DNA from: a virus
Lineage: Duplodnaviria > Caudoviricetes
Reading direction: 5' to 3' (one strand)
Virus record (IMG/VR): IMGVR_UViG_3300028833_000061
Location: 1-64,000 of that record
Length of the DNA: 64,000 bases
Shown here in pieces: positions 8,594-44,324 of the stretch; within the stretch, counting starts at the first letter, position 1, and every line of letters starts with the position of its first letter. Below the pieces are notes generated by a model, which was not told the DNA's origin, searched no databases, and saw nothing but the letters and a program-made list of their open reading frames with translations. Both the position numbers and the translations under genes were made by a program.

Positions 8594-10045
8594 CTATCCT
8601 CCTATTTCAGCCTCTGCGTCGGCCAGTTCGTTGTTCCAAAGAACAAGTGCCTTGCCTGCATCGTCTACGTTTATTCTATACGGTTTTTGTCCGTTGTAGA
8701 AGTGCCATATTGGCGCGTCCCACATCTTGTTGTTGTTCTCTCCTGGCGTAGGAGGAAATATCCACTTCGAATCTATACGCTTTATGGATCCTGCGAAGAA
8801 ACGGTTCATTGCCGTCTGATCAGGAAGAAAGAACCTGTACGCCTCCTTCGATGCGTAGTCCAAAAACCGTACTACTACATTATCCTTGGACCGCATCTTC
8901 TTCAAGTCCATGACTATCGTGCCGGAATAGAAGCCATACTCCGGCACGACGCCGTACGGTGCTGCAATGACTTCGTTTTCGCCAAGCTCAGTGTCCCACA
9001 GCTCTCTAATAGAAGACCTGCACAGGGTGTCGGCGTCTATGTATATCACGCGATCTACTCCGGGCATCAGCATAGGCAGACAGAATCTGGCAAACGTTAT
9101 GCCTGAAAACGTTCTTACGCGACCACCTGGATTTCTTCTAGAGCACGCGTCAAGCTTCTGCATAAGACTCGAAGGTATACGGTTGAACACAATATGGAAG
9201 TTGTCGGACATGAGCACGTTTATCTTCATCATAAGATCCGCCGGTATGACATTATAGAAGATATGTACACAAACTATGTCGTCCTTGGCCATATTCTTTC
9301 GCATTGTGTAGACAGACACAAGAAGCTGATCACAGAACTGTGCAGCTCCCTGCCCTTGAACGTCGATCGTATAAGCAACATGCATAGTTCGCTCAGCCTT
9401 GTCCTTTGCAACCTCCGCGAGTGCCTTTGAGTATCTTGTCTTAAGATCCAAGTCTGCTGCGCTTTCTAGCTTGCGATCTACTGACCAACCCTGTGGGAGA
9501 TGGATCGAACTGCCGACCGTATGCTGTGCAAATATCGGGTCTTTCCCCTTGTATGACCCGTCCATAAGACCTAAAACTACATCGGCTCGTCCATTCTTCT
9601 CCCACTTTGACAGGAATTCCTTGTAGGCCTTCTCACCAAACAACACATACGCTTGACTGCCGTACACACGCTTGAAGTCAGATCTCTTCGCAATATCCTC
9701 CTTCTGCCTAGGATAGGTCTGTGTCCAGCCGAGCGACAGGCACAGGCAGTCTTTCGGTCTCGTCTCGAATGCCTTTACAAGCAAATTCGCAGCATCGTCT
9801 GACGGAACTGCGTCATCCTCGAACACGACCAGAAATGGCATCTTCGTCTGAAGCGCAAAACGCACCAGAGAGTACTGCGACACCGCATTTCCAAGGGAGC
9901 CTTCGTTGTCTATGTGGCATTCTCGCCACTCTCTTACACTGGAAGGATCCAAGCCGACGGACTTGAACGTACGTTTGAACTGTGACAGGCGCTTTCCGCC
10001 GCCTGTCACAACAAACGCGTTAGAGAGGATTTCCTGTGTAGTCAC
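8594..10045 (-). CDS. Two-domain glycosyltransferase (GT25-like N-terminus plus GT8 C-terminus)
   Basis: VFEDDA and GSQAY (GT25); RVIYIDADT, PDQTAMN, IWHFY..QKP (GT8). Confidence 0.85.
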   Translation of the reverse strand: MTTQEILSNAFVVTGGGKRLSQFKRTFKSVGLDPSSVREWRECHIDNEGSLGNAVSQYSLVRFALQTKMPFLVVFEDDAVPSDDAANLLVKAFETRPKDCLCLSLGWTQTYPRQKEDIAKRSDFKRVYGSQAYVLFGEKAYKEFLSKWEKNGRADVVLGLMDGSYKGKDPIFAQHTVGSSIHLPQGWSVDRKLESAADLDLKTRYSKALAEVAKDKAERTMHVAYTIDVQGQGAAQFCDQLLVSVYTMRKNMAKDDIVCVHIFYNVIPADLMMKINVLMSDNFHIVFNRIPSSLMQKLDACSRRNPGGRVRTFSGITFARFCLPMLMPGVDRVIYIDADTLCRSSIRELWDTELGENEVIAAPYGVVPEYGFYSGTIVMDLKKMRSKDNVVVRFLDYASKEAYRFFLPDQTAMNRFFAGSIKRIDSKWIFPPTPGENNNKMWDAPIWHFYNGQKPYRINVDDAGKALVLWNNELADAEAEIGG

Positions 10046-12339: not shown

Positions 12340-15300
12340 TAGAGGGCCTCCCCGTTGATCGCGTCTAATACCCTTCTGATGTTTCCAAGAACCTCGGACA
12401 CCGAAGTCTGTCTCCAGTCTCCTCCATACCAAGAATACCCGGCAGTTACCGCATTAGTACACTCGTACAGCTTCGCTTCACGCACTACAAAATCGCCGTT
12501 AGTATACGCGTTTGATGACGAAAACACCGGGGCTATAGACTCAAGCAGTACTGTGTTTTCTGCAACAACCTGTTTTGCCATGTCCCTTACTTCGTCAAAC
12601 GGGGCTAACTTTACACCGTTATACTCGTAATAATATGGAAAATACGCTATAGGATCGTATCCAAGTATCGTAACAAGTTCCTGAACTCCTGCCCTGATAG
12701 TCAGATACCCTGAAGAATCAAGCAAGCAATCGCCCATGTCGGTACTACCAAGCCTTATTAAATAACCACGGTATCCAGGTGGCACTGACGACATATATCT
12801 ATTGTATACGAAACTAACGTTGTCCCCTACTGTATCCTTGAACGTGGCCGTGATCGCTGCCTGCTGCTCCTTTGTTATCAGGAGAATTGGCGCCATGTTC
12901 GTATCTACCACTCTCACTGGCGTTAGCAAAGACTTCAGATTCGTCTCTCCAATCCAGAACCCCTCTGTGCCTCCAATCGGATCTATGTTGAACGTGCCTG
13001 GTCCATGGCTCTCGTAGAAGCCGTTTGTCAGACTCTGTATGTTGTCGGCATGTTGGGCTGTCCACAGAGATGCGCGAGGAGCGCTAGTCGAGTCAAATCC
13101 GGCGGACCAGGCCCATGAATCGGAATCCTTTGCCGAAACGTACTTTCCGTGGGCCTGTGACGTTCCTGCAGATGCGAGGGTATACCACCCTGAAGAGCTG
13201 GAGGCATATCCGGCGGCAGTCGTGCCTTCTCCTGTAGCCGTTGAAACATTTCCTTTCGCTCTGGTGTTCTTTCCAGACGCAAATCCTATCTTTCCTGTTA
13301 CCTTTCCGCCATAACCTGTGACGAACGAATCATCGTCGGCGGTTGTCACGTTGTTTCCTAGAGCGACGGACGACCTTCCCTTGGCCTCTGTATTGCCTCT
13401 GCCTACAGACAGGGTAAACCCGCCGGGATTTGGGTCGAACGCAGTAGACACTAGATCCGCCTTCTCACCGACATACAACGCACCGTACAGCGAGACATAC
13501 CTGTTAGCCCTGCGCGAACCGACGAATGTGTCCAGAAGATCATAGTACTTAAGAGACTGGAACTCAGACTCGGATCCTTCCAGGGTCGTGCTCTTATAAA
13601 GAACATTATCAATGCTTCCTAGATAGGTCTTCAAGTTTTTATCGCCAATCCAAAAGCCAGAAAGACCACCAAGCGGATTTACATTGAACGTCCTTTGTCC
13701 GTGGTCTGCATACTGGCCATAACCTCCGTTCCACATGAACACATACTGGTTTGTCACGGCCGTAAGCCCACCAAGCACTACGGAATATGGAGCGTTGGAC
13801 ACCACATTGTGGTGGTACCCTCCGATTATTATGTTCTGCGAGTTGTATACACCAGTGCCTGTAGGTGCCAAAAACGTAGCGTTCGGAGAATTATACACGC
13901 CTCCTCCTCCGCCGCTTAGCACAAAGCTGCTGCCGGAATTCATGGCGGTCGTGCCTCCTACGCCGGTGATTATGGAGTAGGGAGAACTTTCCAGATTGTT
14001 GCTGATATTGCCGGAAACTATTGAATTCGCCGAGTCCTTTACGGTATGGCCAGACTGCCCAAACACGGCGGCTCCGCTGGAGTTCGTAACCAGGTTGCCG
14101 TTGCCGAACACCGTTACGTTGTCTCCGAAAACGGAATTGTTGTTTCCGAAAACGAAGTTGTTGTTGCCAGATACGCTATTTTCGTCAAGCCTGTATACGT
14201 TGACACTGCCATTTCCGTTTGTCGTTATGAAGCCAGCGTCATTGGCATACGCGCTAAGCGCACCAGGTACGGTTATGTTCTGTTTGAACAGACTGGGCTC
14301 TACATACGGAAGCGAACCGTCAAACCCAGCGGACGCTTCGATCCAATACTGTGCGTTGGTTCCTTCGATTGTTCCGATTACAATCTGTGGCTTGTTTGCA
14401 GGTATAGAGCTTATAAACGCCGTGCCTCCAGATCTTCCTACCATGTCTATACCAACGTTGCCTCTAAGATTTGAATAGCTCGGATGGCCGTAAGAGTCGT
14501 CTACGAAATTACCTACATTTATGTATTGAACGCCGTCGTCAGTCGTTGAAAGAATCTTTGTCTTAAGCTGGGTCGAGCTTGGAAATCCAGACCAAGCTTC
14601 CTCGTATACCCCACTGCTATACACACGAACAAGCAAGAGTGACTCTGTATTATCTGGAAGTACAACAAATTCAAACTTACCGGCGGGAGGCAACCAGGGC
14701 TCAGCCGGTGTACCAATCAGACAGTTTGTAACCACGAAGAACGGTGTATCTTGATCTAACACCTGTCCAACTGCATGATATATAAGAGCCTGTGCGCCTG
14801 TCCCATAGTTTTTGTACAGCTTGATAGAAACAGCCACTGGATTTGACGAGTATATATCGTTTTCGCTCTCAACGACTGCGACAGTTCCAGCTATTCCACC
14901 AATCTCGCTGCTACTAGGACTCGATACGTACTTCCACTGCGGAGTAAGTGAAACCGTTCCGTTCTGGGCTATTGACATCTTATAGTTAGAGCCCTGCTCT
15001 ACTCGATTGGTCGGATATACTGACGCTAGCCAGTTAGTGAATGCAGGATCCGTCTCTGTAATATTTGCGAGGTCCTCCTCGGTTGCTACTGTTCCAGCCT
15101 TGAGTACTCCGTTTGTCCTCCACGTAAGTGTTCTGCTACTACCAGAACTATACTCAGACATGTTCCAGGCATTTATGTATAGATTATCAAGATAGAAATC
15201 ACCGCTACTATTGAAACCGGCATACAGCTTTCCGTTATTTATACTTAACGCCAGATCATACACTTCGTTGGTTATGGCCGAACGGGTCTCATCAGTTCTG

Positions 15301-32030: not shown

Positions 32031-32588
32031 CTACTCCTGAATGGTGACTGCGGTTACCTGGAGGCGGAACTCCTTGTGGATCTCATACACCACGATGTTG
32101 CATCCGTTCAGCGCGCGAATGTTGTCGTTGACGTACTTCTTCGTCTCCTCGATCGCCTCGTACTCCTCCGTGACCCAGCTGGGAAGCTGCTGCGTGCGCA
32201 GACAGACCTCCTCCTTGGAATCCCAGACGTCGAACGCCCAGCGCGACTTGTAGATGCGCTTGAACGAGCTTGCAGGAGCGGGCTTGACCTCGATGGTCTC
32301 CTTTTCGACCGGCTCGGCCTCGTCCATCGCAACCTCTTCCTGCGGACACGGATCAGGCTCGCCATAGTCCGGCTCCTGCCTCTTGGTCCTTCTGACACGA
32401 GGTGCTTTCTTTGGCTCCTCCTCGACTGGTGCTCCGTCAGGCATAGGCAGACCGTGCTTCTGGCAGTACTCTGGATCCTGCATAAGCTCGGCCTTGGTTC
32501 TGCGGTGGCGCTTCTTGGGCTTCTCGGTATTCTCTGGAGCCACCTGCTCTTCTGTTGTCTCTACGTCGTAGACTGATTTTGCTGACAT
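32031..32588 (-). CDS. Hypothetical protein
   Basis: 185-aa ORF. Confidence 0.65.
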   Translation of the reverse strand: MSAKSVYDVETTEEQVAPENTEKPKKRHRRTKAELMQDPEYCQKHGLPMPDGAPVEEEPKKAPRVRRTKRQEPDYGEPDPCPQEEVAMDEAEPVEKETIEVKPAPASSFKRIYKSRWAFDVWDSKEEVCLRTQQLPSWVTEEYEAIEETKKYVNDNIRALNGCNIVVYEIHKEFRLQVTAVTIQE

Positions 32589-33481
32589 GTTTGTTGATCG
32601 GTTGAGATTTTGGATTTTGCTTCTGCAGGCTTCTTTGCATAGACAGGATGGCCCGCGATCTTTATCGTAGTCACATCTTCCTCTGACTCAACCGAACCGT
32701 CAGACAACTCCAGCTTAGCGGCTTGCTTCGCGGCCTTCTCCCTCATGTGATAAATGTGCCGCTTGATCTTCTTCTCTTCCTTCTTATCCTGCAGTGCTTC
32801 CTCGTTCCACTTCCAGGCAGGATAGACCTGCGAATACCTGAAGCAAAGCAGCTCGAACTCCTTTGAGCTCAGATGCAGAGTGTTGGCTATGTCGCAGAAC
32901 GCCTCGATACGTGGAACAGCCTTGCCGAGCTCCCATCTGCTGATGCACGCCTGTGTCTTCTTGATCTTGATAGCAAGATCGTCCATGGATACGTTCTCGC
33001 GCTCCCTGAGTATACGCAGGAGGCTCCTGAACGGAAGACGATACAGCTCCGGCATCTTCTTGAACCCTGTCTCGACTGTAACGACGTGGACGGTTCCTTC
33101 GATGTCAGCATGGATAGGCGGATGCTCTAGCGACATGCCACCGAGTTCGTAGCCTGGCTCGTTTACGATATCGGCCATGCTGTTCATTGTAAGCTTGACG
33201 CGATCAGGAGTGACGCATTCGCGTGTGTTGATAGTTACTGGTGCGCTGGTAAGAGCCTTGTGCCTTCCAGCAACTCCCTTGTTCCAGTCGTGGTTGACGC
33301 CAACATACGTGCGGGCTCTCTTGCGTGCCGCAATCCTGCCTGACGGAGACGTAGGACGAACATAGGACGCCTGCTCTGCTGCTGCAAGCTTAAGGCACTT
33401 GCTGTAGCTCATGCGGCGGGCTGTTCTGGCTGTGAGGTTGCTCATGTCGTGTAACGTGTGGAACAGGGCGCAGTATTGCAT
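32561..33481 (-). CDS. XRE/Cro-C1 helix-turn-helix transcriptional regulator
   Basis: LRILRERENVSMDDLAIKIKKTQACISRWELGKAVP. Confidence 0.8.
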   Translation of the reverse strand: MQYCALFHTLHDMSNLTARTARRMSYSKCLKLAAAEQASYVRPTSPSGRIAARKRARTYVGVNHDWNKGVAGRHKALTSAPVTINTRECVTPDRVKLTMNSMADIVNEPGYELGGMSLEHPPIHADIEGTVHVVTVETGFKKMPELYRLPFRSLLRILRERENVSMDDLAIKIKKTQACISRWELGKAVPRIEAFCDIANTLHLSSKEFELLCFRYSQVYPAWKWNEEALQDKKEEKKIKRHIYHMREKAAKQAAKLELSDGSVESEEDVTTIKIAGHPVYAKKPAEAKSKISTDQQTCQQNQSTT

Positions 33482-33957: not shown

Positions 33958-35091
33958 CTAATCCTCTCCGTCAGGTGACGAGAAGTCATCCAGGCCTTGC
34001 AGCCTGAAGACTTCGCCAACGGTGATACCGCCAGCCTTAGGAGCCTCCTTGCGGATATCCCTTGGGACGAATCCTATTCTGCACCAGTAGTGCAGCGGCT
34101 TCTTCGGGTCTCCAAACGACAGGTTGCGCAGATCCTGGGCGTCGTTCACTGAGAATGCAGAGAACTCCTGGACTGCAACGCACACGTCGTCGACACGTCC
34201 TGAATCCAATGCAGTCTCGTACAGACACACATTGAGCTGCGGATTCTGCGTCTGGATGCGATTGATGGCCATTATAGATGGATCGACTCCTTCCACGTCA
34301 AACGGGACCGGCTCCCCTTTCTTTTCTCTTGAGATGTCGATAATAAGCGGAGCTATCATGGAGAACTTTTTAGGAGTGTCGCTCAGCTGCTCCATCTTGA
34401 TCGAATCCTTTATCATGGACTCCCAGGTGGAAGACCACACAAGGTCACGATCGGAGAGCCTCCACCTCTGTGCGGAGATCCACTTTAGTTGCTGGTGGCA
34501 GCGAGGACACTCGACATCCATATCTGTGAGATCCTTGAGCCCTTTGATGACAGTCTTCTCGTCGCCCTTATAAACCGCTACAGTGCGCTTCATATTCTTG
34601 CCGTTGATTTCCGTCTCGATTTCCTTGTTCACCGTGTTGGCGAACAGGACATCTTTGACGGTACGCACGATTGTGCCGCAACTCGGGCAGTTGCACCTCG
34701 CCGACGGTACGCTGACAAGACAAGGTCCACGAACCAAACTGACTCGCACTTTCCCTTCGAACTTGCTTTCCTTCGTCTTCTCGTCGTAGGTATAGCGCTC
34801 GAATTCGAGCTTTCTACGGGGACACGTAAGAACAACCTCATGGACGCTGTAGTCTTCGGTTTTGGAAGAGACGACGAGGTATCCTCTGATACCGGCTCCC
34901 TCGCTAGTCTCGACATGGAGCTTGCCCTTGGAATCTTTCGCCGACCGGATGTCGGTAAAGCCAAGATGACGAACTCCCTTATCTGCTGAATCGCTTCCTG
35001 GATACTTGCTATAAGGCATCACAAGGCAGCATGTAGCAGGCCCATGGTCCTGCAGGAACCCGCCAGGTTGGCGGTTCTTTTTGTTTTTCAT
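33958..35091 (-). CDS. Zn-ribbon-containing hypothetical protein
   Basis: CPSC...CPRC; own promoter motif and terminator. Confidence 0.7.
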   Translation of the reverse strand: MKNKKNRQPGGFLQDHGPATCCLVMPYSKYPGSDSADKGVRHLGFTDIRSAKDSKGKLHVETSEGAGIRGYLVVSSKTEDYSVHEVVLTCPRRKLEFERYTYDEKTKESKFEGKVRVSLVRGPCLVSVPSARCNCPSCGTIVRTVKDVLFANTVNKEIETEINGKNMKRTVAVYKGDEKTVIKGLKDLTDMDVECPRCHQQLKWISAQRWRLSDRDLVWSSTWESMIKDSIKMEQLSDTPKKFSMIAPLIIDISREKKGEPVPFDVEGVDPSIMAINRIQTQNPQLNVCLYETALDSGRVDDVCVAVQEFSAFSVNDAQDLRNLSFGDPKKPLHYWCRIGFVPRDIRKEAPKAGGITVGEVFRLQGLDDFSSPDGED

Positions 35092-35218: not shown

Positions 35219-35452
35219 TTACGGCATGACAAGCCTGCCGGGTCGTGTTCTTCCGTTATACTCGTAATAACAACCCGTGGCGGCGTGTCTTTCATTTTCG
35301 GTGTAAAGATATTCGATAGGATCCTCTTCGATACATTCGCTTGCAGGAAACTTGTAACCCTGGTTTCCTACAAGCGCCTCGTGCTTCATGTTCATCATCA
35401 GGCATAATTGATGACGCTGTGCGTAATAGTATATTCTTCCGGCCTCAATCAT
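35219..35452 (-). CDS. PxxxER array protein 33
   Basis: MIEAGRIYY...TENER. Confidence 0.65.
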   Translation of the reverse strand: MIEAGRIYYYAQRHQLCLMMNMKHEALVGNQGYKFPASECIEEDPIEYLYTENERHAATGCYYEYNGRTRPGRLVMP

Positions 35453-35672
35453 AGTAGAATGGCTCCATTTCGAAACCGCACCATCGCGTGTGGTTTCTTT
35501 CCTCCTCGAACGGTTTCCTGTTCAAGGTTCCAGTAAGCACAAACAGCCTGTCGTAGCTCGAGATCCATTTTGTACGCACTAGAAGAATGTTCGATGCACC
35601 GTAGCGCTCTGCGTTGTATTTGTATACTGCCTCTCGCAGCTTTGACATGTCGTCTCTAGATGACTTAATCAT
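35445..35672 (-). CDS. PxxxER array protein 32
   Basis: MIKSSR...KPFEEER. Confidence 0.7.
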   Translation of the reverse strand: MIKSSRDDMSKLREAVYKYNAERYGASNILLVRTKWISSYDRLFVLTGTLNRKPFEEERNHTRWCGFEMEPFYYD

Positions 35673-35898
35673 AGAACGGCTCCAGCGCGAATCCGTGTCC
35701 CTTTGTAAACATCCTTTCCTGTTCGAACGGTTTTCCGCTGAGAGAGTTGGACAGCACGTATGAGCGTCTGTTGCTGAACACGTAGCTGAACATCCACGCG
35801 GGATGTATCAGAACGTTTGCGCACCTATTTCTAGAAGCGGCGAATTTATAGAACGCCTCGCCCAATATCGAAAATTTCTGCCTTGACGCCACCATCAT
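35665..35898 (-). CDS. PxxxER array protein 31
   Basis: MMVASRQKF...KPFEQER. Confidence 0.7.
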   Translation of the reverse strand: MMVASRQKFSILGEAFYKFAASRNRCANVLIHPAWMFSYVFSNRRSYVLSNSLSGKPFEQERMFTKGHGFALEPFYD

Positions 35899-36137
35899 CT
35901 CGTCATATCTATGCCTGTGAACACGTATCTTGAACTTGCATCGAACCTGCGCTCGTTAGGGCACAGCATGCAGTTCTTGAGAACAGTCTTAGGACTGTAC
36001 GGACCATAGTGCGGAGGACTATAAGGAGAAGGATAGTACTTTCTTCCCATCCTAAGACCAGGATATGCCAGCTTTGTGATGCTGTCGTGGGCCGCTCGCA
36101 TCATCTCTAAGTAATGCCTTGCATCTATGTGTCTCAT
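35895..36137 (-). CDS. PxxxER array protein 30
   Basis: MRHIDARHY...CPNER. Confidence 0.65.
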   Translation of the reverse strand: MRHIDARHYLEMMRAAHDSITKLAYPGLRMGRKYYPSPYSPPHYGPYSPKTVLKNCMLCPNERRFDASSRYVFTGIDMTR

Positions 36138-36403
36138 CAGTAGAATTGTTTTGATCTTTTACTGCCTGGATACCAGGCACCGAGACCGCAGATCGAACAA
36201 CCGTTGATGTCGTTATCTCGTTCAGCTCTGAACGGATGTGTATTCCTTAGAACGCCTTCAGGGTCTATTGGGCCATGTATAGTATTACCGAACAATCCAA
36301 GACTAGTAGGCCCAAGATGAAGGTACGGCGATACGATCTTGTCCACCGCTATGTATGTAGATTCCAGTTTTTGTTCAACATACCATCGCGTAATCCATCT
36401 CAT
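36137..36403 (-). CDS. PxxxER array protein 29
   Basis: MRWITRWY...HPFRAER; AGGAGG RBS. Confidence 0.7.
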   Translation of the reverse strand: MRWITRWYVEQKLESTYIAVDKIVSPYLHLGPTSLGLFGNTIHGPIDPEGVLRNTHPFRAERDNDINGCSICGLGAWYPGSKRSKQFY

Positions 36404-36411
36404 ACAACCTC

Positions 36412-36609
36412 CTATCTTCCGTACGCCCATCCTGAGCTGTTCACACGTCTTTCGACGTTGAACGGATGGACTATCCTGTCCTTGTCGTTGCCTACCGTGT
36501 TCCGTCGTCTGATCTGACCGAACTTGAGCAGGAGTTCAGTGTTGTCCCGATATATCATTCCAAGCCACCTGAGCTCTCCTGCAAGGCACCATCTTTTGAT
36601 TCTGCTCAT
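36412..36609 (-). CDS. PxxxER array protein 28
   Basis: MSRIKRW...HPFNVER. Confidence 0.65.
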   Translation of the reverse strand: MSRIKRWCLAGELRWLGMIYRDNTELLLKFGQIRRRNTVGNDKDRIVHPFNVERRVNSSGWAYGR

Positions 36610-36839
36610 GAGAATATGCAGTCCATACTCTCTGCGCTGTATCTGTGCTTCACGTGCGGGAAATGAATATGGAAATTGAATATCTCTGCACGCTCGTCGT
36701 GCATAGGCCTGTAGTCAGGCCATGCTCCAGTGAGCGCGAATGGATTCATCAGAAACCAGTGCTTCAACTCATCTACGCCATACATTAGTGAGGCGTATTT
36801 AACGTGCAAGTAGTACTCGCTTCTGTATGCTCGTTTCAT
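36606..36839 (-). CDS. PxxxER array protein 27
   Basis: MKRAYRSEY...RPMHDER. Confidence 0.7.
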   Translation of the reverse strand: MKRAYRSEYYLHVKYASLMYGVDELKHWFLMNPFALTGAWPDYRPMHDERAEIFNFHIHFPHVKHRYSAESMDCIFS

Positions 36840-37084
36840 GCTAGTTGTATCGGCTTGTAGCGCTCTCCGGCGAAGAACCAGGTCTTGAGCTTGTCGTTCC
36901 AAGGATACTTGTAGATCCTCATGAACTGCTGGCGCTCCGTCTTCACCGGGTTGTGTATCGCTGCTGGCATGATTGGATACCTGCATCCGTCGAACTCCAA
37001 AAGCGTTTGTTCGCAGAAGGGTATGACTTCTATTCTAGTCAGCCTCTCCTGCTGGAACAGAAATCTCCTGGTTATACCAACCAT
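36836..37084 (-). CDS. PxxxER array protein 26
   Basis: MVGITRRF...NPVKTER. Confidence 0.7.
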   Translation of the reverse strand: MVGITRRFLFQQERLTRIEVIPFCEQTLLEFDGCRYPIMPAAIHNPVKTERQQFMRIYKYPWNDKLKTWFFAGERYKPIQLA

Positions 37085-37094
37085 CTGATTCCTT

Positions 37095-37343
37095 TCAGTT
37101 GAATTGTCTTATGTCGAAGCATCCGTTCTCGAACCAGCAGTACGGCCACTCCGCTTCTCGATCCCCCTCCATCTTTTTACGTATATATGAAGCAAAGTGG
37201 CGTCTTTCAGCATTGAACGGATGTCTTGTGATGGCCGGGATGGTGTCGGCTGGAGGCTCTATTATAAGATATGCCTGCCCGCTTACTCCACGAGGACAAA
37301 ACCTGTGGACGTAATTGAAGAAGCCCCTGTCTGATTTAATCAT
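37095..37343 (-). CDS. PxxxER array protein 25
   Basis: MIKSDRGFF...HPFNAER. Confidence 0.7.
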   Translation of the reverse strand: MIKSDRGFFNYVHRFCPRGVSGQAYLIIEPPADTIPAITRHPFNAERRHFASYIRKKMEGDREAEWPYCWFENGCFDIRQFN

Positions 37344-37573
37344 AGGCAGAGCCTCATTTCACGTTTGGCATGCCCGGTGTAAACGAAGTCATATGCGTAC
37401 GTAACCGCAATCCTGAATGCCCTGCGCTCGTATCTGATGAAATCCCCGATCATGTGCGAATCCTTCTCCGGCCATCTGGCAGGAGGTATACGCATCAGGG
37501 CCATCTCGTTCCACTGCTCGCGCCTGACGTATCCAAGCTGCCAATTCCACGTCTTCCTTTCAAGGCCGATCAT
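37340..37573 (-). CDS. PxxxER array protein 24
   Basis: MIGLERKTW...FIRYER. Confidence 0.65.
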   Translation of the reverse strand: MIGLERKTWNWQLGYVRREQWNEMALMRIPPARWPEKDSHMIGDFIRYERRAFRIAVTYAYDFVYTGHAKREMRLCL

Positions 37574-37797
37574 TTGAACTTGCCTCTAAGCTTTCCGCAC
37601 AGCGGCCCGTATACGTGGCCGCCGTGTATCTTCTGCATCTTAACGCCGGCACGTTCGTCGTTCATCGGATGGTACGGGTCGCCTCCCATCCAGTAGTCCT
37701 CTTCTGGCCACAGGCATTTCCTGTCAAAGCGTCTTGCTGCATCAAGCCGCGTAATTCTGTATGCCTGAAACAGATACTTCTTCTTCAGGTAAATCAT
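37570..37797 (-). CDS. PxxxER array protein 23
   Basis: MIYLKKKY...HPMNDER. Confidence 0.7.
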   Translation of the reverse strand: MIYLKKKYLFQAYRITRLDAARRFDRKCLWPEEDYWMGGDPYHPMNDERAGVKMQKIHGGHVYGPLCGKLRGKFK

Positions 37798-38021
37798 TTA
37801 AGATCCTTTGTGTTGTATGTCATTCCGCACACCCTGTAAAATTTGTTCAATGTCCTGTAATGCAGTCTTTCATATGTCTCAGGTTGCGGGAATATCGGTA
37901 GCATGTAAGTATTTTCGTTTCGATACGAGTTTCCGAAATACGTCCTGATTATCTCTATTCTGCTTGTGTTGAATACCGAGTGGTACGAACGGTACAGCCT
38001 TTCTCTCGATGCGAATATCAT
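37794..38021 (-). CDS. PxxxER array protein 22
   Basis: MIFASRERLY...QPETYER; AGGAGG RBS. Confidence 0.7.
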   Translation of the reverse strand: MIFASRERLYRSYHSVFNTSRIEIIRTYFGNSYRNENTYMLPIFPQPETYERLHYRTLNKFYRVCGMTYNTKDLK

Positions 38022-38045
38022 TCAAGCCTCCTTGCCAGCCCAGCC

Positions 38046-38231
38046 TCATCTGAACATCGACAACCGTATAGGATTTACACGCTCTTGCTCGTAAGGACGC
38101 CAATCGAACATTGTACGAGACAAGTACGGTGCCCTGCTGTATCCGAATACCGCAGGCGCCCTCTTGAGATCGTATGTTGCAAGAAGCGCCCTGTGATTGC
38201 GTGCGTGTATGTATCTTCTTGACGTCTTCAT
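38046..38231 (-). CDS. PxxxER array protein 21
   Basis: MKTSRRY...RPYEQER. Confidence 0.7.
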   Translation of the reverse strand: MKTSRRYIHARNHRALLATYDLKRAPAVFGYSRAPYLSRTMFDWRPYEQERVNPIRLSMFR

Positions 38232-38404
38232 TTGAACCAACCTGCGTGCGCACGCCTGTCTGCGTCGAACGGACGCCAGTCGACAATCGTTGCGATTCTA
38301 GGAACCTTGTCGAATCCGAAGAGGTACCAGCTCTTTTTCCAGTCATACGATATGACTAGCGACTGGTGATACCTGCGGTGGATGTGCCTTCTTGCCAGCC
38401 TCAT
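38228..38404 (-). CDS. PxxxER array protein 20
   Basis: MRLARRHI...RPFDADR. Confidence 0.7.
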   Translation of the reverse strand: MRLARRHIHRRYHQSLVISYDWKKSWYLFGFDKVPRIATIVDWRPFDADRRAHAGWFK

Positions 38405-38583
38405 TTGAACGTTCCGTCCATTCTTACGCAGATTCTTTCGATACTCTGTGGCCTGTAGTCCCTTAGCATACTGATGTAAGGCACTTTGTCGTACCCAAAT
38501 ATGACGGGTGCGTTCTTGACGTCGCATGACCACATCATCCACCTTAGATACATGTGGTATGTGCGTCTTATTGCCAGCCTCAT
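38401..38583 (-). CDS. PxxxER array protein 19
   Basis: MRLAIRRTY...RPQSIER. Confidence 0.7.
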   Translation of the reverse strand: MRLAIRRTYHMYLRWMMWSCDVKNAPVIFGYDKVPYISMLRDYRPQSIERICVRMDGTFK

Positions 38584-38801
38584 TTGTACCTCGACACCCT
38601 ATACGTTGTTCCACGGAACACAGCCCAGCATTCATGCCGTCTCTTCGCCTCGGCAAGCCTGTCTCTCTCGTCTCTTACAATGTGTTTCGGATACGAGTGG
38701 TGGTTTGGTTTGATTCTAAGTTTTGCGCAAGAATCGTAATCAACTACGCCAATCTCCCAGTTAAGCTCATGTCGATACATATACCTTTTGAAGTTTATCA
38801 T
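38580..38801 (-). CDS. PxxxER array protein 18
   Basis: MINFKRYMY...IVRDER. Confidence 0.7.
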   Translation of the reverse strand: MINFKRYMYRHELNWEIGVVDYDSCAKLRIKPNHHSYPKHIVRDERDRLAEAKRRHECWAVFRGTTYRVSRYK

Positions 38802-39040
38802 CTGTACTTAAGGTAGTATTCCTCGTCATTCTTAGGCGCTCCCGGATCTATACAGTTTATATATCCAAATGTTCCGTGAATAGCCTCCCAGCGCTCAGCT
38901 CTGAACGGCCTGTAAGGATTTATAATGTGCGCATCGTTGTACAGCCTTAGCTTCGTCTGTGAATTCCAATTGCAGTCACTTGTATACTGAAGGCTGTCGT
39001 GCAGCTTTCTATGCCAATTGATTCTAGTAAGCATTATCAT
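38798..39040 (-). CDS. PxxxER array protein 17
   Basis: MIMLTRINW...RPFRAER. Confidence 0.7.
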   Translation of the reverse strand: MIMLTRINWHRKLHDSLQYTSDCNWNSQTKLRLYNDAHIINPYRPFRAERWEAIHGTFGYINCIDPGAPKNDEEYYLKYR

Positions 39041-39267
39041 TTGAAGTCGCTCACTCTCCTTAGTATGCCGTCGTACCAGAACCATCGATGGTCTGTACGA
39101 AACGAATCCCGATAAGCCGAGCAATTCAGGCTCTCACGTTCGCCGCACGGAGCATTGTCTATGTACGTGAACGTCCTGGACGGATCCTGCAAATGTGCCT
39201 TGCACAAGTCAAGATCCTTGTATCCATAGAATCCACGAGTGTATCTTGGTCTTGTGTAGCCTATCAT
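39037..39267 (-). CDS. PxxxER array protein 16
   Basis: MIGYTRPRY...APCGER. Confidence 0.7.
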   Translation of the reverse strand: MIGYTRPRYTRGFYGYKDLDLCKAHLQDPSRTFTYIDNAPCGERESLNCSAYRDSFRTDHRWFWYDGILRRVSDFK

Positions 39268-39470
39268 ATGTAGTTACCTGGTGATATGTTGTGGGTCTTA
39301 ATACTACAAAAGTGATCCCTTTCGTACGTCACAGGATTCGGATGCCACGACGGTTCGTTCAAAATCAGGATGCTCCTAAGGCCCAGCTTGAATTCATCGT
39401 CCTTCTTGTTCGTTATACTCCTGAAGTATCCAAGCCTGAACGCGTACCCGCGCCTACGCCATACGATCAT
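39264..39470 (-). CDS. PxxxER array protein 15
   Basis: MIVWRRRGY...NPVTYER. Confidence 0.7.
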   Translation of the reverse strand: MIVWRRRGYAFRLGYFRSITNKKDDEFKLGLRSILILNEPSWHPNPVTYERDHFCSIKTHNISPGNYI

Positions 39471-39676
39471 GAGTCATAGCGGAATGGCCACAGCTTGAGG
39501 CGGTGTTTCCGCAGCTCTTCCTTGTTCTTGAACAGCACGCGCTCGTCCTCGGTAGGAGTCCAGTTGGAATATGACTTGTACTGATCGACGATGTACGCCG
39601 CCTCGCACGTGCACGGCTTTCTTTTTTTCTCGGTCTTTAACGCGGCGAAATATTGCCATCTGCTACAGTTTATCAT
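39467..39676 (-). CDS. PxxxER array protein 14
   Basis: MINCSRWQY...TPTEDER. Confidence 0.7.
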   Translation of the reverse strand: MINCSRWQYFAALKTEKKRKPCTCEAAYIVDQYKSYSNWTPTEDERVLFKNKEELRKHRLKLWPFRYDS

Positions 39677-39861
39677 TTGTATTGGTACAGGTCATGATGC
39701 CACTGGAATCGTAGCCGCTCGTAATATATTACGCCCGGCAGGTGAATCTTGTAGGACTTCTTTGTAAGCAGATCCAGAAGTTCCCGATCGTTGATGTTTT
39801 TCGTGGATTCGTTGGCTTCCTTCAGGTCGACAAGATAGTCCCATCTGTTGTACTTTATCAT
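39673..39861 (-). CDS. PxxxER array protein 13
   Basis: MIKYNRWDY...VIYYER. Confidence 0.7.
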   Translation of the reverse strand: MIKYNRWDYLVDLKEANESTKNINDRELLDLLTKKSYKIHLPGVIYYERLRFQWHHDLYQYK

Positions 39862-40106
39862 GTGAACATGCTCGTAGGTTTCCACCTTATCCACGAGCCG
39901 GCCATAAGCAGCCCGCATCTTCTGCGGTATGCATCATCGTCGATAGCTGCATTTAGATACTTGCGCTCTTCGCTGAATATGTCCTTTGGCGGTATAACAC
40001 TGACGAATCTGGAACACTTGTGCCTCTCTATCGCATAGTCGCTTTCTATGTGCCTTCCCTCGAACAAGAAGTCTATTTCATACTTGTGCCTGGTGTAGTT
40101 GATCAT
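39858..40106 (-). CDS. PxxxER array protein 12
   Basis: MINYTRHKY...IFSEER. Confidence 0.7.
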   Translation of the reverse strand: MINYTRHKYEIDFLFEGRHIESDYAIERHKCSRFVSVIPPKDIFSEERKYLNAAIDDDAYRRRCGLLMAGSWIRWKPTSMFT

Positions 40107-40330
40107 TTAAATATGCTCCTTGAGATCCACTCGTCGTATAGTCCGAGGGCAGGAAACCAGCCGATGACACGCATCCTTTCGTAGACCCTTATGAATTCCG
40201 TCCTCTCGTACCTGTCCGGGTATGGCGCGCTTGGCATACTTATGTGGTCTATATTCCACTTAAGGTCGACACGCTCGCACAGTGCAATCTCGTAGCCCTC
40301 GTAGTAACGTCGCCTGCTTACGTTGATCAT
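40103..40330 (-). CDS. PxxxER array protein 11
   Basis: MINVSRRRY...YPDRYER. Confidence 0.7.
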   Translation of the reverse strand: MINVSRRRYYEGYEIALCERVDLKWNIDHISMPSAPYPDRYERTEFIRVYERMRVIGWFPALGLYDEWISRSIFK

Positions 40331-40539
40331 TTTATCAAGTCCATCCAGCAGTAATTGCCGTAGAACCACAGGCACGGCTTGTCGGTGTGTACCATAGAGT
40401 TCAGCCTGCGTCTCTCGCTCTTGTCTGGATTTTCTTCTATGTATCTTTTTCCTCGCGTAGGCCACGACACGTGACTGCAGTAGTATTTCACTGTATTCTC
40501 GTGACCGGTCAAGTAGGATGCTCTGTGAATGTTGATCAT
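40327..40539 (-). CDS. PxxxER array protein 10
   Basis: MINIHRASY...NPDKSER. Confidence 0.7.
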   Translation of the reverse strand: MINIHRASYLTGHENTVKYYCSHVSWPTRGKRYIEENPDKSERRRLNSMVHTDKPCLWFYGNYCWMDLIK

Positions 40540-40781
40540 CTTATGTCCCTATAATTTACATCGTACGCACGCACAGACAGAGGAGGCGGCGGCGAAACAT
40601 GCAGGTACGCGATCATGTCATTGTATCCGTGGATCCTGTCCCTCTCGTAGCTGTCTGGCTTTCCAGGGAACCTGAAAGTTCCAAAGTCATAGAATTCACT
40701 GTCGAACAGACGAGGATGTGCCCTGCTTCTGATGACCATTTCAAGCATGTCCAGGTACTGTTGCTTTCCGAAGTTTATCAT
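40536..40781 (-). CDS. PxxxER array protein 9
   Basis: MINFGKQQY...KPDSYER. Confidence 0.75.
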   Translation of the reverse strand: MINFGKQQYLDMLEMVIRSRAHPRLFDSEFYDFGTFRFPGKPDSYERDRIHGYNDMIAYLHVSPPPPLSVRAYDVNYRDIR

Positions 40782-41005
40782 CTTATTTCGTAGTATCCTA
40801 CCTTGTACATCCTGACAGACAGGTCAAGCCTGCAGTTGATCCTGTTGTATGTGTCGATACGGCTCCTCTCGTAACTATCAGGCTTTCCGGTAAACGGACC
40901 ATGACCAACATCGTATAATCCGTAGTCGAACAGGAAAGGATGCGCTCTGTTGTAGTTGAGAGCCTTCAGCATTCCACAATACTGTCGCTTGCCAAAATTG
41001 ATCAT
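40778..41005 (-). CDS. PxxxER array protein 8
   Basis: MINFGKRQY...KPDSYER. Confidence 0.75.
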   Translation of the reverse strand: MINFGKRQYCGMLKALNYNRAHPFLFDYGLYDVGHGPFTGKPDSYERSRIDTYNRINCRLDLSVRMYKVGYYEIR

Positions 41006-41250
41006 CTGAACATGCGCAACGGTGTGCGGTAGATGTACTTAGGTTGACTGTAGCTATCGATAAGCCTTCTGTGCCGAAGCCTCTCGTCGTAAGGAGGATT
41101 GTACCTAACCATGAAGTATTCGCCATTCCGCGGGAATACGCTCTCGGGCTGCATGTTCTTCACGGCCGCCCTACGGTAGCACTCGACATGCCATCTGCGT
41201 ATAGTAAGACTCATATCAGCATACTCCTGAAATCGAATCCGCGTATCCAT
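41002..41250 (-). CDS. PxxxER array protein 7
   Basis: MDTRIRFQEY...YNPPYDER. Confidence 0.7.
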   Translation of the reverse strand: MDTRIRFQEYADMSLTIRRWHVECYRRAAVKNMQPESVFPRNGEYFMVRYNPPYDERLRHRRLIDSYSQPKYIYRTPLRMFR

Positions 41251-41423
41251 CGTTCATGAGTATGGTGCTTGTTTGCCCCGTACACAATCTTCCGCTCCCT
41301 GTCGAACGGATTGTACCTCGAATACGCACATTTAAACTTCTTTGGAAACAGCGAATCGGGTTCTGCGCTTCCGCGCAGTTCCTTGAAGAAGTAATACCAC
41401 ATGTATCGGTATTCGCGTATCAT
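41211..41423 (-). CDS. PxxxER array protein 6
   Basis: MIREYRYMW...YNPFDRER. Confidence 0.7.
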   Translation of the reverse strand: MIREYRYMWYYFFKELRGSAEPDSLFPKKFKCAYSRYNPFDRERKIVYGANKHHTHERWIRGFDFRSMLI

Positions 41424-41674
41424 CTTAGATTATCCATGTTTACTCTAGAGTATCTGAATCTGCCAAATCTGCCGAGCTCGATCCGTCTGCTCTTGAAATA
41501 TCTAAGCTGTGTTCTTTCGCTGAACACCGGATCTTCCTCGAGTATCCAATGCCTTGACTCTGGAATCTCGAACATGTGTTTTAACTCAGGTGCAGGAATA
41601 AGGTCCTTGTTCCTGCTGTCGAAGTTGGCACCGCGAAGTCCTAGCTCGTAGCTTATCCTGCCGACGTGTATCAT
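41420..41674 (-). CDS. PxxxER array protein 5
   Basis: MIHVGRISY...EEDPVFSER. Confidence 0.75.
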   Translation of the reverse strand: MIHVGRISYELGLRGANFDSRNKDLIPAPELKHMFEIPESRHWILEEDPVFSERTQLRYFKSRRIELGRFGRFRYSRVNMDNLR

Positions 41675-41919
41675 CGTATGTTCTCCGCGGATACTAGGAG
41701 TCCTCTTATGTTGGCCCGGTCCCAGCCACGCACTCTGAAAAGATAGTCTATGCGCTCCCTCTCGTGCCACACTGGATCTTCCTCCAACGGAAACGGTCCT
41801 CCGCCCCATATAGCATCTTCACCCAGCCCTTTTGGCTCAGGCATTACGCTCTTGTTCCTGCAGTTGTATACCGTGTCGCAGAGTCCCATGTCGTAGCTTT
41901 TTCTGCTTACTCCTATCAT
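41671..41919 (-). CDS. PxxxER array protein 4
   Basis: MIGVSRKSY...EEDPVWHER. Confidence 0.75.
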   Translation of the reverse strand: MIGVSRKSYDMGLCDTVYNCRNKSVMPEPKGLGEDAIWGGGPFPLEEDPVWHERERIDYLFRVRGWDRANIRGLLVSAENIR

Positions 41920-42203
41920 CTGTATACCTCGAACTTTATGCCGTCCCTTCTGTGAAGAGCCCGGCTGATGCCGGCCGCTTCGAACAGCGCAATGCGCAAT
42001 CCGCTCATTGCATTGAGACAGTTCAGGTAGCCACGCACGCCCTTGGATATTCGATACATCTTGAACAGCTTCCTTTCGCTGTCGTCGACACAGCATCTGT
42101 ACGGGCCGTTGTCGACTGTACCGTTGATCTGGTTGTTGTAGGCGTCGTGCGCCAACTCGAGGCAGGTGTAGAACTTGTCCCTGTTCCAAATCTTGCTAAG
42201 CAT
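41916..42203 (-). CDS. PxxxER array protein 3
   Basis: MLSKIWNRDKF...VDDSER. Confidence 0.6.
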   Translation of the reverse strand: MLSKIWNRDKFYTCLELAHDAYNNQINGTVDNGPYRCCVDDSERKLFKMYRISKGVRGYLNCLNAMSGLRIALFEAAGISRALHRRDGIKFEVYR

Positions 42204-42576
42204 CGTCTCTTCTCCCGTATCTGGACAAAAGCGCATACCAGTGCATGTTGGTTATCGTGCCAAGCGCGCATGCGCCCAGTTCCGGCAGCATGTCGTACAG
42301 CATCACGTCCTTGTACTTCTCATAGTAGTACTTGCGAGAGTAGTCTCCGTCAATCGGAGGATTCCACAAGGATCTCAGCCTGTGAAACCACGCGCACGCT
42401 CCGGGATAGTACGTCCTCTCAGAGTGCAATCCTAGCAGATCGACCACATCCACCTTGCGGCTGTACCACTCGCCTTCTCTGCCTGGATGCTGATACATGA
42501 ACGTCTGTGAGTTGTTCCTGAGTATCTTTAAATTTTCCCAGTCGACGTCGTACCTGCGCCTTGTGTACCCAAGCAT
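42196..42576 (-). CDS. PxxxER array protein 2
   Basis: MLGYTRRRY...LHSER. Confidence 0.65.
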   Translation of the reverse strand: MLGYTRRRYDVDWENLKILRNNSQTFMYQHPGREGEWYSRKVDVVDLLGLHSERTYYPGACAWFHRLRSLWNPPIDGDYSRKYYYEKYKDVMLYDMLPELGACALGTITNMHWYALLSRYGRRDDA

Positions 42577-42998
42577 CAGCACAGCTCCTTCCACAAGTTT
42601 GTCCTGAATCTGAACAGCTTTTCAGTGAAGCTCGGCCGAAGTCCAGGCGTATACTGAAAGTCGTTCATCAGTGCGTTCACGAGCCTGGACATGTACGATG
42701 ACGGGCACGGCATAAGTCCAAGATGCCCGGCCTTTCTTCCTCTGCCATAGTCGTATTCGTCGAAGCAGCTGCTCGTGCAGAATCGCTCTTCGTCGATGTC
42801 CATAAATCCGGTAAGCTGATACGTGCTCACTGAATGGCAGTCACGAGGATCGAACGATCCAAAGTAGTTCGTGCCAAGCTGTATAACCGACATCCCGAAA
42901 TCGAACGACTGCCCCCTGAGAAGACATTCGTCGTGGAACAGCCGCACGCAGGCCATGTCTGAAACAGTCTTCCAGTAGAGTTGTCTTTTGTTCCTCAT
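42576..42998 (-). CDS. PxxxER array protein 1
   Basis: MRNKRQLY...DIDEER; weakest match to the family. Confidence 0.55.
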   Translation of the reverse strand: MRNKRQLYWKTVSDMACVRLFHDECLLRGQSFDFGMSVIQLGTNYFGSFDPRDCHSVSTYQLTGFMDIDEERFCTSSCFDEYDYGRGRKAGHLGLMPCPSSYMSRLVNALMNDFQYTPGLRPSFTEKLFRFRTNLWKELC

Positions 42999-43133: not shown

Positions 43134-43207
43134 TGGAGCGACGTGCGGGAGTCGAACCCGCCTGACTAGCTTGGAAGGCTAGGACCCAGCCGCTAGGCCA
43201 ACGTCGC
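43134..43207 (-). tRNA. tRNA-Gly(TCC)
   Basis: Cloverleaf, U73, CCA. Confidence 0.9.
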
Positions 43208-44324
43208 ACTGTGTTTTGTTAATAGCCGCCGCTTCTCGTCTGCGCTTTCTGCCGAATTTGTTTCGACCCATCCATGTTGGAGATTGCGAGTCGCAGTTTG
43301 GACAGACAAGCCGGATATTTTCAATGACGTTATTATCGGCGTTTCCGTCGATGTGGTCAACTATAAGCGTCAAGTGCTTGCCGTTCCATTTGCTCCTTCC
43401 GCATATTGCGCATTTGTATCCGCTTGTTCTAGATATATAAAGAACAACTTCTTCACGCTTTATCTCCTGTCCTTGTTTGCTGAAGTATCCTCTTTCCTCT
43501 ACTTCCTGTATAACAATTTTCTTTTTATATTCATTGCAACACGCATGTGAACAGAATTTTTGGTCGCTATAGTGTTTTTTGCGTACAAATTCTTTTCCGC
43601 AATTAAGACATGTCAAGTGAGCCTTTTCAAATCTATCACTTAACAACTTTGAGGCACATGCACGAGAGCAACATACTTGCTCACATCCTCTGCTAAATGT
43701 TCTCTTTTTAAATGTTTTTCCGCATACAGGACATGTTCTAACTAGATCAGGGCGCCGTATTCTCCAGTCAACAATCTTTTTATGGCGTTGTTTCATAGTT
43801 TCACTAAGAACTTTACCCCAGCACTTCGAAGAACAATAAGTCTGACGTACCCGGCCATGAAAACTCTTTCCGCAAACTGGGCATATTTTATACAGACGCT
43901 TTCCTTTACATGCACATCTATGGCTACAGTATATGTGTCCTTCCTGGCTGATTTTTCTTTTATAAGCCAGTTTTCCTTTTGTTACGAAGAACTTTTTACC
44001 ACATGTCGGGCAAGTTACTTCTACCCGTGCTGCGTTTTTTCTTGCTTTGCATCCGCATTTTGGACTGCAATACACATGGCCACCTACGTTATTTTTGATA
44101 GATACTTTCAGCTTTCGTGCAGATATTAGAAACTTTTTACCACAGGTGTGGCACACAGCTTCTACGGTGGCTGCAATTTTTTTAGCTTTGCCAACACATG
44201 CTCTGCTGCAATATACGAAGCCACCAGCATTTCTTGTGGCCGCGCGTTTAAGTTTTTGCTTTTCTATCAGAAACAACTTGCCACAGGTGTGGCACGTAGC
44301 TTCTACGAAGTTATTTCCACCCAT
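43179..44324 (-). CDS. HNH homing endonuclease with multiple N-terminal CxxC...CSxxC Zn-finger repeats
   Basis: VDHIDGNADNNVIENIRLVCPNCD; six repeats; markedly AT-rich. Confidence 0.9.
   Translation of the reverse strand: MGGNNFVEATCHTCGKLFLIEKQKLKRAATRNAGGFVYCSRACVGKAKKIAATVEAVCHTCGKKFLISARKLKVSIKNNVGGHVYCSPKCGCKARKNAARVEVTCPTCGKKFFVTKGKLAYKRKISQEGHIYCSHRCACKGKRLYKICPVCGKSFHGRVRQTYCSSKCWGKVLSETMKQRHKKIVDWRIRRPDLVRTCPVCGKTFKKRTFSRGCEQVCCSRACASKLLSDRFEKAHLTCLNCGKEFVRKKHYSDQKFCSHACCNEYKKKIVIQEVEERGYFSKQGQEIKREEVVLYISRTSGYKCAICGRSKWNGKHLTLIVDHIDGNADNNVIENIRLVCPNCDSQSPTWMGRNKFGRKRRREAAAINKTQCDVGLAAGS

Follow-up and report, generated by a model that had tools for sequence, protein, structure and literature searches.

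An old tandem array of orphan mini-genes in a large uncultured bacteriophage, probably grown by recombination between neighbouring copies

The analyzed stretch of DNA, referred to as the window, comprises 64,000 nucleotides of a 201-kb phage genome and carries on its minus strand a contiguous head-to-tail chain of 33 consecutive open reading frames, designated g01 to g33, the starts of which were re-derived from stop-to-stop frames and ATGA overlaps. The largest part of this chain, located at positions 35219-42576, is an array of 31 members of one gene family (g02 and g04 to g33) along with the doubtful gene g03. The array genes encode proteins of 58 to 126 amino acids, with a unit of about 75 amino acids and start-to-start distances of approximately 180 to 270 nucleotides, and 24 of the 32 junctions of the gene chain display a 4-nucleotide ATGA overlap of stop and start codons. 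The array does not contain pseudogenes, as every one of the 33 frames is intact and no gap is larger than 24 nucleotides, and a scan for terminators and promoters detected no internal terminator on its coding strand. The loss of array copies seems to proceed by clean in-frame deletion. The first gene of the operon, g01 (42576-42998, minus strand; 140 amino acids), is not a member of the family and obtained a leave-out profile score of -1.0 bits. The gene g03 (41916-42203, minus strand; 95 amino acids) is located within the chain and might represent a degenerate member with a P-x7-SER motif; its leave-out profile score of 8.3 bits was reached by one of 200 shuffled sequences, the full profile yielded E=0.81, and no match was obtained in Pfam.

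Directly upstream of the array, a gene at positions 43179-44324 on the minus strand specifies an HNH endonuclease with repeated zinc ribbons (Pfam HNH_3, 1.6e-5) that is flanked by tRNA genes, including a tRNA-Gly gene at 43134-43207. Two genes downstream, at positions 32561-33481 of the same strand, an XRE-type helix-turn-helix protein is encoded (Pfam HTH_31, 9e-7; HTH_3, 5e-6). A gene for a 377-amino-acid zinc-ribbon protein and intergenic regions lie between it and the array. The possibility that the array ORFs are non-coding was rejected on account of the unbroken chain of 33 frames, the presence of conserved orthologues, the native codon usage and the GC contents of 0.45, 0.40 and 0.61 at the three codon positions, a periodicity that is expected of coding sequences. 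The codon usage resembles that of the long core genes of the phage, with a frequency of A at the third position of 0.21 among the array genes, as compared with 0.20 among the core genes, and with the same preferences for AGA/AGG, ATA and CTT. This match supports the view, expressed in an earlier note on this DNA, that the array does not go back to a single acquisition, at least as far as a recent one is concerned.

The deduced proteins are characterized by the N-terminal motif MIxxxRxxY and the central motif PxxxER, with M1 and the P and R residues of PxxxER being invariant in the family. The N-terminal MI cannot be regarded as a purely protein-level signal, because the ATGA overlap fixes A as the first base of codon 2. 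A profile of the 31 members recovered all 31 genes in a six-frame search of the 201-kb genome and detected no further copies elsewhere in it. When the cluster to which a member belongs was removed from the profile, 22 of the 31 members scored higher than all 200 shuffles and seven additional members were reached by no more than seven of 200 shuffles; g24 and g30 scored weakly, and judged on their own they may be considered weak candidates for membership. Among the 14 family members compared with Pfam-A and PHROGs, none gave a match below E=0.2. When 1.84 billion proteins were searched with a profile, only nine matched, all of which correspond to array genes, one being identical to g02, and neither viral contigs nor metagenome contigs contained related loci; the sole match in genome contigs was spurious and covered 14 residues in a Dehalococcoidia MAG. 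Likewise, the array had no counterpart in a phage collection searched with megablast and tblastn, and neither Salmonella phage Arash nor Vibrio phage D181, which are distant relatives by their terminase, carries the family. AlphaFold models from two runs, based on alignments of 57 and 71 rows, were unusable (pLDDT 56), the ESM Atlas provided no usable feature match, and its structure matches rest on a model with a pLDDT of 0.47.

With regard to the origin of the array, it is extremely improbable that related mobile mini-genes inserted repeatedly and independently at a single hotspot instead of being duplicated in place. The adjoining HNH endonuclease gene suggests a recombination-prone region, but no family member lies outside the array in this genome, the family is represented among the 1.84 billion proteins only by counterparts of array genes, and the seamless ATGA junctions and the native codon usage argue in the same direction.

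The relationships within the family were analyzed by scoring the neighbour groups named in the earlier note with the Smith-Waterman algorithm (BLOSUM62) against 60 shuffles, followed by alignment. All five groups proved to be genuine, and their coordinates were correct to the base. The closest paralogues are g08 (40778-41005) and g09 (40536-40781) on the minus strand, with z=31.7, identities of 57% at the amino acid and 61% at the nucleotide level, a dN of 0.41 and an NG86 dS that is either about 1.8 or uncomputable and thus saturated. The pair of g31 (35665-35898) and g32 (35445-35672), likewise on the minus strand and outside the span 38046-41919 on which the note had focused, reached z=29.9 at 45% amino acid identity, its dS again being saturated and not computable. 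The minus-strand trio of g21 (38046-38231), g20 (38228-38404) and g19 (38401-38583) showed z values of 13.5 to 25.3 at 32 to 40% amino acid identity, namely z=25.3 and 36% for g20/g21, z=16.6 and 32% for g19/g21, and z=13.5 and 40% for g19/g20. A 43-nucleotide DNA repeat with 70 to 79% identity is present at the starts of all three genes, each of which has orthologues in relatives. The minus-strand genes g04 (41671-41919) and g05 (41420-41674) share the motif ..SY..GL...RNK..LEEDPV..ER (z=15.9; 39% amino acid identity). Finally, g06 (41211-41423) and g07 (41002-41214), the start of the latter being revised to an ATG that takes part in an ATGA overlap, are located on the minus strand and have the motif ..P[DE]S.FP...RYNP in common; with z=5.6 their link appears weaker than that of the other groups, yet real. 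The six strongest of the 528 pairwise similarities all connect either direct neighbours or members of the trio, and the best pair of non-neighbours after these reached z=7.5.

The relation between similarity and gene order was examined for the 31 members with 20000 permutations. The best match was the immediate neighbour for 14 of the 31 members (permuted mean 2.0, maximum 12; p<5e-5), and the mean z of neighbours was 5.0 (p<5e-5). The Spearman coefficient of z and rank distance was -0.24 (p<=5e-4) and remained at -0.21 (p=6e-4) once each recent cluster was collapsed to one member, a correlation of relatedness and position, the lack of which the earlier note had named as speaking against its proposal. 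In the maximum-likelihood tree of the family, which is otherwise a star, the tightest supported groupings centre on neighbours, with SH-aLRT values of 97 for g08 and g09, 82 for g04 and g05, 90 for the trio together with the long-branched g27, and 86 for g31 and g32 with g33 and g25. Two looser clades with values of 81 mix non-neighbours, one consisting of g02, g12 and g16 and the other of a set of nine rows. Since 22 of the 28 inner branches fall below 80 and the deep branches are poorly supported, the order of the duplications is not reconstructable from the tree. These data indicate that the array has grown by local tandem duplication, as had been proposed, because row neighbours are the closest relatives and relatedness tracks position not only in the conspicuous pairs but also in the deeper similarity that underlies them. 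Duplication of multi-gene blocks was considered separately and rejected, as no off-diagonal signal was detected at distances 2 to 11.

The age of the copies was deduced from their divergence and from 90 related proteins of public metagenomes. Each of these 90 proteins matches one particular paralogue of the array, with 54 to 100% identity and with two of them being hybrids, and the sampled duplications therefore predate the divergence of the relatives. None of the 90 proteins represents an extra paralogue without a counterpart in this array. Most orthologues are conserved at 74 to 100%, g14 being one of the well-conserved members, and only the g04 lineage falls to 54%; the orthologues of g04 and g05 split into a g04 clade (93), which displays mosaic C-termini, and a g05 clade (86). 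Within the array itself, no near-identical copies with unsaturated synonymous divergence were found, and the dN/dS values of the pairs, ranging from 0.2 to 0.6, are unreliable as they rest on saturated dS. The longest DNA repeats measure 43 to 51 nucleotides at 70 to 79% identity and none exceeds 51 nucleotides at 75%, so that this genome offers no substrate for present-day copy-number polymorphism. The copies are saturated at synonymous sites and each is represented in relatives by an orthologue of its own; the expansion is therefore ancient, and what is visible today is slow turnover, in which deletions or conversions give rise to hybrids, and not active amplification. The earlier note had assumed ongoing birth-and-death evolution, of which the turnover is upheld by the two in-frame hybrids of the relatives; ongoing birth is not supported, as even the youngest pair is strongly diverged, and the array contains no young duplicate that would reveal a birth event directly. 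The rapid divergence after duplication that the note had also assumed may equally well reflect the simple age of the copies.

Both hybrids are known solely as protein sequences, P0063 being encoded on a public contig of 3.8 kb and P0079 on one of 19.8 kb. Judging from equal lengths of their longest contigs, the relatives' proteins P0006 and P0020, P0066 and P0012, and P0068 and P0077 appear to lie pairwise on contigs of 23 to 43 kb. In P0063, residues 1-22 match g09 at 20 of 22 positions and residues 23-73 match g16 at 39 of 51 positions, and the two parts are joined in frame at a common ..AH that corresponds to GGCACAT in both g09 and g16 of the window. The stretch from g16 to g09 (39037-40781, minus strand) has apparently collapsed into one hybrid gene in this relative, from which we infer the probable loss of g10 to g15. 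The second hybrid, P0079, is present on two contigs and combines in frame the N-terminal part of g04 with a g05-like C-terminal part joined at LEEDPV; it could have originated from a gene-conversion tract rather than from a deletion. The two proteins imply that loss or conversion probably occurred in the arrays of relatives, and the in-frame fusions g09|g16 and g04|g05 may be read as the signature of in-register recombination.

Taken as a whole, the array is likely to be a multigene family that is old and fixed in a large uncultured phage and that grew stepwise by in-register unequal recombination of neighbours. By this mechanism, which we infer for the births of the copies, each event would add one unit or a few units as neighbouring paralogues recombine unequally. 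A crossover within two misaligned copies would keep the frame and the ATGA junctions and place the new copy beside its parent, and the reciprocal event would remove copies and leave one hybrid gene. The duplicates would then diverge until synonymous sites are saturated, and each would persist as a gene in its own right, matched in relatives by an orthologue of its own that is in most cases well conserved (74-100%). The mosaic C-termini of the g04 orthologues and the resemblance of P0079 to a conversion tract would also suit concerted evolution, by which an ancient burst, or duplication in any order, was followed by gene conversion that kept adjacent copies alike. This explanation is improbable, however, as no two copies in the window share a tract of high identity (at most 51 nucleotides at 75%), the identity of the pairs is spread along their whole length with saturated dS, and the orthologues of relatives keep their paralogue identity, which argues against homogenisation.

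The stepwise growth of the array can be compared with known cases of gene amplification. Tandem segmental amplification via short homologies is described as experimentally established for T-even phages (PMC13096335; bioRxiv 10.1101/2022.04.14.488369); the examples include the T4 tifA gene, as presented in the latter report (10.1101/2022.04.14.488369), and the SegB-tRNA locus of T6, in which the amplification is driven by a homing endonuclease whose gene adjoins tRNA genes (PMC13096335). A genomic accordion is likewise ascribed to the poxvirus K3L gene (Elde 2012, as cited in the review PMC13359090). These systems resemble the array in tandem duplication through short homologies, and the T6 locus also in its neighbourhood of a homing endonuclease and tRNA genes. 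In contrast, the copies of an accordion hardly differ from one another, are short-lived and vary in number, whereas the array copies share at most 61% of their nucleotides, are fixed and have their own orthologues in relatives. An active accordion with ongoing, selectable changes in copy number is thus very improbable for the array: the two recombinant hybrids in natural relatives and the HNH endonuclease and tRNA genes upstream, resembling the T6 SegB locus (PMC13096335), are outweighed by the divergence of even the closest pair and by the lack of counterpart-less paralogues among the relatives' proteins. If the array ever was an accordion, it would be the long-term residue of one.

Among the closest parallels in organization are families of large eukaryotic DNA viruses, namely the multigene families MGF 110, 360 and 505 of African swine fever virus and the tandem paralogue blocks of mimiviruses and pandoraviruses, which also consist of many diverged head-to-tail paralogues (see the review PMC13359090). 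As in the array, adjacent genes tend to be most closely related, and the genes are non-core genes with an obscure function or a role in host interaction; copies come and go by unequal recombination, as is proposed for the array. The array differs from these eukaryotic-virus families by its occurrence in a bacteriophage, its tiny units of about 75 amino acids and its organization as an ATGA-chained, translationally coupled operon, and it has no sequence relation to any of them. A search of the literature for tandem paralogue arrays of phages found none. In Acr-Aca loci, small acr genes are followed by an aca gene encoding a helix-turn-helix protein, and the genes of an acr locus are usually few and mutually unrelated. 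The array shares with such loci the run of small genes in an accessory region and the HTH_3 protein downstream, but it comprises 31 paralogues, its HTH gene is set apart, and its products match nothing in sequence.

Tandem amplification in phages is a fast and reversible means of escape from bacterial defences, and we know of no documentation of its long-term fate. The deduction of local duplication from the similarity of neighbours is textbook reasoning, and the value of the array lies in its scale, its age and the orphan nature of its family. About 31 diverged copies of an orphan mini-gene have been kept as one coupled operon, each conserved in related phages, which suggests that phage genomes, like those of giant viruses, can acquire lasting gene families through duplication followed by functional diversification. 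Tentatively, the products of the single translationally coupled transcript may be putative diversified host-interaction or anti-defence proteins. A rather unlikely extension of this view is that the array is the phage equivalent of the multigene families of large eukaryotic viruses and forms a long-lived library of about 31 diversified small effectors, each directed against a different host factor or defence variant, which would have arisen by endonuclease-stimulated amplification beside the HNH and tRNA genes and would then have been frozen by subfunctionalisation; if true, the array would show where the accordion process leads in the long term, a process that phages have so far been observed to undergo only transiently, as a response in the laboratory. 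The array products are small, basic and rich in aromatic residues, and they constitute a tractable set of small proteins for target screening.

The array belongs to a continuous row of 33 genes on the minus strand (g01 to g33, with starts re-derived from stop-to-stop frames) that runs from position 42998 down to 35219. The 32 junctions comprise 24 ATGA stop/start overlaps of 4 nt, five overlaps of 1 or 8 nt and three gaps of 8-24 nt. Three common features place 31 of the 33 genes (g02 and g04-g33; 58-126 aa) in one family, namely the N-terminal motif MIxxxRxxY, a central PxxxER with invariant P and R and with E in at least 90% of the members, and an amino acid composition that is basic and rich in aromatic residues (R 11%, Y 7.7%, pI mostly 8.5-11). 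The MI signal stems in part from a nucleotide constraint, since with the ATGA overlap the second codon must begin with A. A profile built from the 31 members matched each of them, and no other sequence, in the six frames of the whole genome. When the own cluster of each gene was excluded from profile building, 22 of the 31 members exceeded 200 of 200 shuffles; g24 and g30 were weak, g03 was marginal and g01 was a non-member. Searches with 14 of the members gave no match in Pfam or PHROGs, and the family is an orphan.

The codon usage of the array is that of the 66 phage ORFs of 300 aa or more, including third-position A (0.21 versus 0.20) and the preferences for AGA/AGG, ATA and CTT, and the GC content by codon position shows coding periodicity. 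The array genes are thus real and long resident. A preference of the array for A-ending codons that would suit the tRNAs of the phage is not borne out, since the usage equals that of the long ORFs. The array is most likely transcribed as one long operon, in which the overlaps probably couple the translation of successive genes; scans revealed no terminator-like site of note on its coding strand and no excess of promoters. Two structure predictions were obtained, both of low confidence. Our best guess, a tentative one, is that the products are diversified small host-interaction or anti-defence proteins.

The earlier note had claimed that adjacent members are nearest relatives and that the array grows by local tandem duplication. 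All 528 gene pairs were scored by Smith-Waterman alignment against shuffles, and the six strongest pairs were all adjacent or inside the trio g19-g21: g08/g09 (40778-41005 and 40536-40781; z 31.7), g31/g32 (35665-35898 and 35445-35672; 29.9), g20/g21 (38228-38404 and 38046-38231; 25.3), g19/g21 (g19 at 38401-38583; 16.6), g04/g05 (41671-41919 and 41420-41674; 15.9) and g19/g20 (13.5). They correspond precisely to the groups that had been named, together with the weaker pair g06/g07 (41211-41423 and 41002-41214; z 5.6); the best non-neighbour pair reached z 7.5. The best match was an immediate neighbour for 14 of the 31 members, compared with 2.0 expected (gene-order permutation, p<5e-5). Similarity and distance showed a rank correlation of -0.24 (p<=5e-4, gene-order permutation), which was still -0.21 (p=6e-4) without the five obvious recent copies. 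Relatedness is therefore correlated with position, contrary to the outcome that the earlier note had given as its refutation, and the observation stands and supports local duplication. By eye, a deeper trend is apparent, with [N/D/K]P before ER in most of g04-g16 and [R/H]P[F/M/Y] in most of g17-g29. The tightest supported groupings in the array tree centre on the neighbour groups, with g27 joining the trio and g25 and g33 joining g31/g32; two clades with an SH-aLRT of 81 mix non-neighbours, and the tree is otherwise star-shaped, its tips being very long.

The further proposal that duplication is ongoing and followed by rapid divergence was not supported in either part. The closest pair, g08/g09, shares 57% protein and 61% DNA identity (NG86 dS 1.8), and the dS values of the other pairs were 1.4-3.2 or not computable. 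Within the 8.2-kb region, direct DNA repeats reach at most 43-51 nt at 70-79% identity, and therefore the genome contains neither a young duplicate nor repeats from which homologous copy-number change could arise at present.

When 1.84 billion representative proteins were searched with a profile, only nine matches were obtained, each corresponding to a particular array gene and one being identical to g02. Cluster listings and word-indexed searches enlarged this set to 90 proteins from Logan, ENA, JGI and NCBI assemblies, all of which map to one particular paralogue each, covering 15 of the 31 paralogues at 54-100% identity. The g04/g05 subfamily tree separates the relatives into two clades, one with g04 (SH-aLRT 93) and one with g05 (86), and each trio gene has its own orthologues; the sampled duplications therefore predate the divergence of all known relatives. 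Conservation was high for g14 (86-100% identity, 54 of 69 columns invariant) and g08 (89-100%), and fell as low as 54% for g04. Judging from equal contig sizes, the low g04 values seem to stem from contigs that also carry 89%-identical g08 orthologues. The g04 orthologues P0006, P0066, P0069 and P0070 (54-84%) are far more variable between relatives than neighbouring genes, and the N- and C-terminal halves of the g04 lineage are mosaic, which points to recombination between alleles or to faster evolution of g04 alone.

Two of the relatives' proteins are in-frame hybrids of two paralogues. In P0063 (73 aa, one 3.8-kb contig), positions 1-22 match g09 at 20 of 22 residues and positions 23-73 match g16 at 39 of 51, the join being a shared ..AH encoded by GGCACAT in both window genes. 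The simplest reading of this sequence is a deletion that would have removed g10-g15. In P0079 (81 aa, two contigs, the longer of 19.8 kb), positions 1-50 match g04 at 45 of 50 residues, and in the remainder 17 of 28 aligned residues agree with g05 versus 9 of 22 with g04; the join is a shared LEEDPV motif, where window genes g04 and g05 share GAGGAAGATCC.

We propose that the array grew long ago by local unequal recombination, and that the copies then diverged and were each retained, compatible with subfunctionalisation. The hybrid-forming, in-register recombination at short shared motifs would be the reciprocal of the event creating a neighbour duplicate, and occasional recombination may still trim or mix copies. 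The lack of pseudogenes and scars would be explained because in-register recombination preserves the frame and the ATGA junctions. The same familiar process underlies viral multigene families and genomic accordions (PMC13359090); unusual here are the phage host, the scale of 31 copies and the age combined with per-copy conservation.

Directly upstream of the array lie tRNA genes, including a tRNA-Gly gene (43134-43207) just downstream of which the first array gene starts, and an HNH endonuclease gene with four or five repeated zinc-ribbon modules (43179-44324). This arrangement resembles a locus of phage T6, where microhomology-mediated tandem amplification is driven by a homing endonuclease next to tRNA genes (PMC13096335); an anti-defence gene of phage T4 is reported to be amplified in the same way (10.1101/2022.04.14.488369). 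By analogy, the parallel may serve as a lead. Downstream of the array, genes encoding a 377-aa protein with weak zinc-ribbon matches (33958-35091) and, beyond it, an XRE-type HTH-domain protein of 306 aa (32561-33481) are located; the latter is a possible regulator of the region.

The window covers the initial 64 kb of one virus record of 201,401 bp (GC 50%) and contains 16 tRNA genes. Products of the genome include a DNA polymerase of family A, a DnaB-like helicase and a large terminase. Even the nearest relatives in culture are remote, with 30% identity between the terminase and its counterparts in Salmonella phage Arash and some Vibrio phages, and about 24% between the polymerase and those of SPO1-like phages. 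Public contigs of 201,499 and 284,452 bases carry proteins identical to those of the window; because of these contigs, the 201-kb record may be incomplete, or else the 284,452-base contig may be a concatemer. Apart from the array, BLAST detects a single paralogue cluster in the 201-kb genome, located at genome positions 79993-86123 on the minus strand (L001:15993-18952 and L002:1416-2123). It consists of four ORFs (109-247 aa), none with a Pfam match, which have a common motif of about 20 aa (81-85% identity) and are less similar elsewhere. In its structural or accessory region, the window encodes a BspA-type leucine-rich-repeat protein (10525-12432) and a family 8 glycosyltransferase (8594-10045), which may provide hints at the host or environment.
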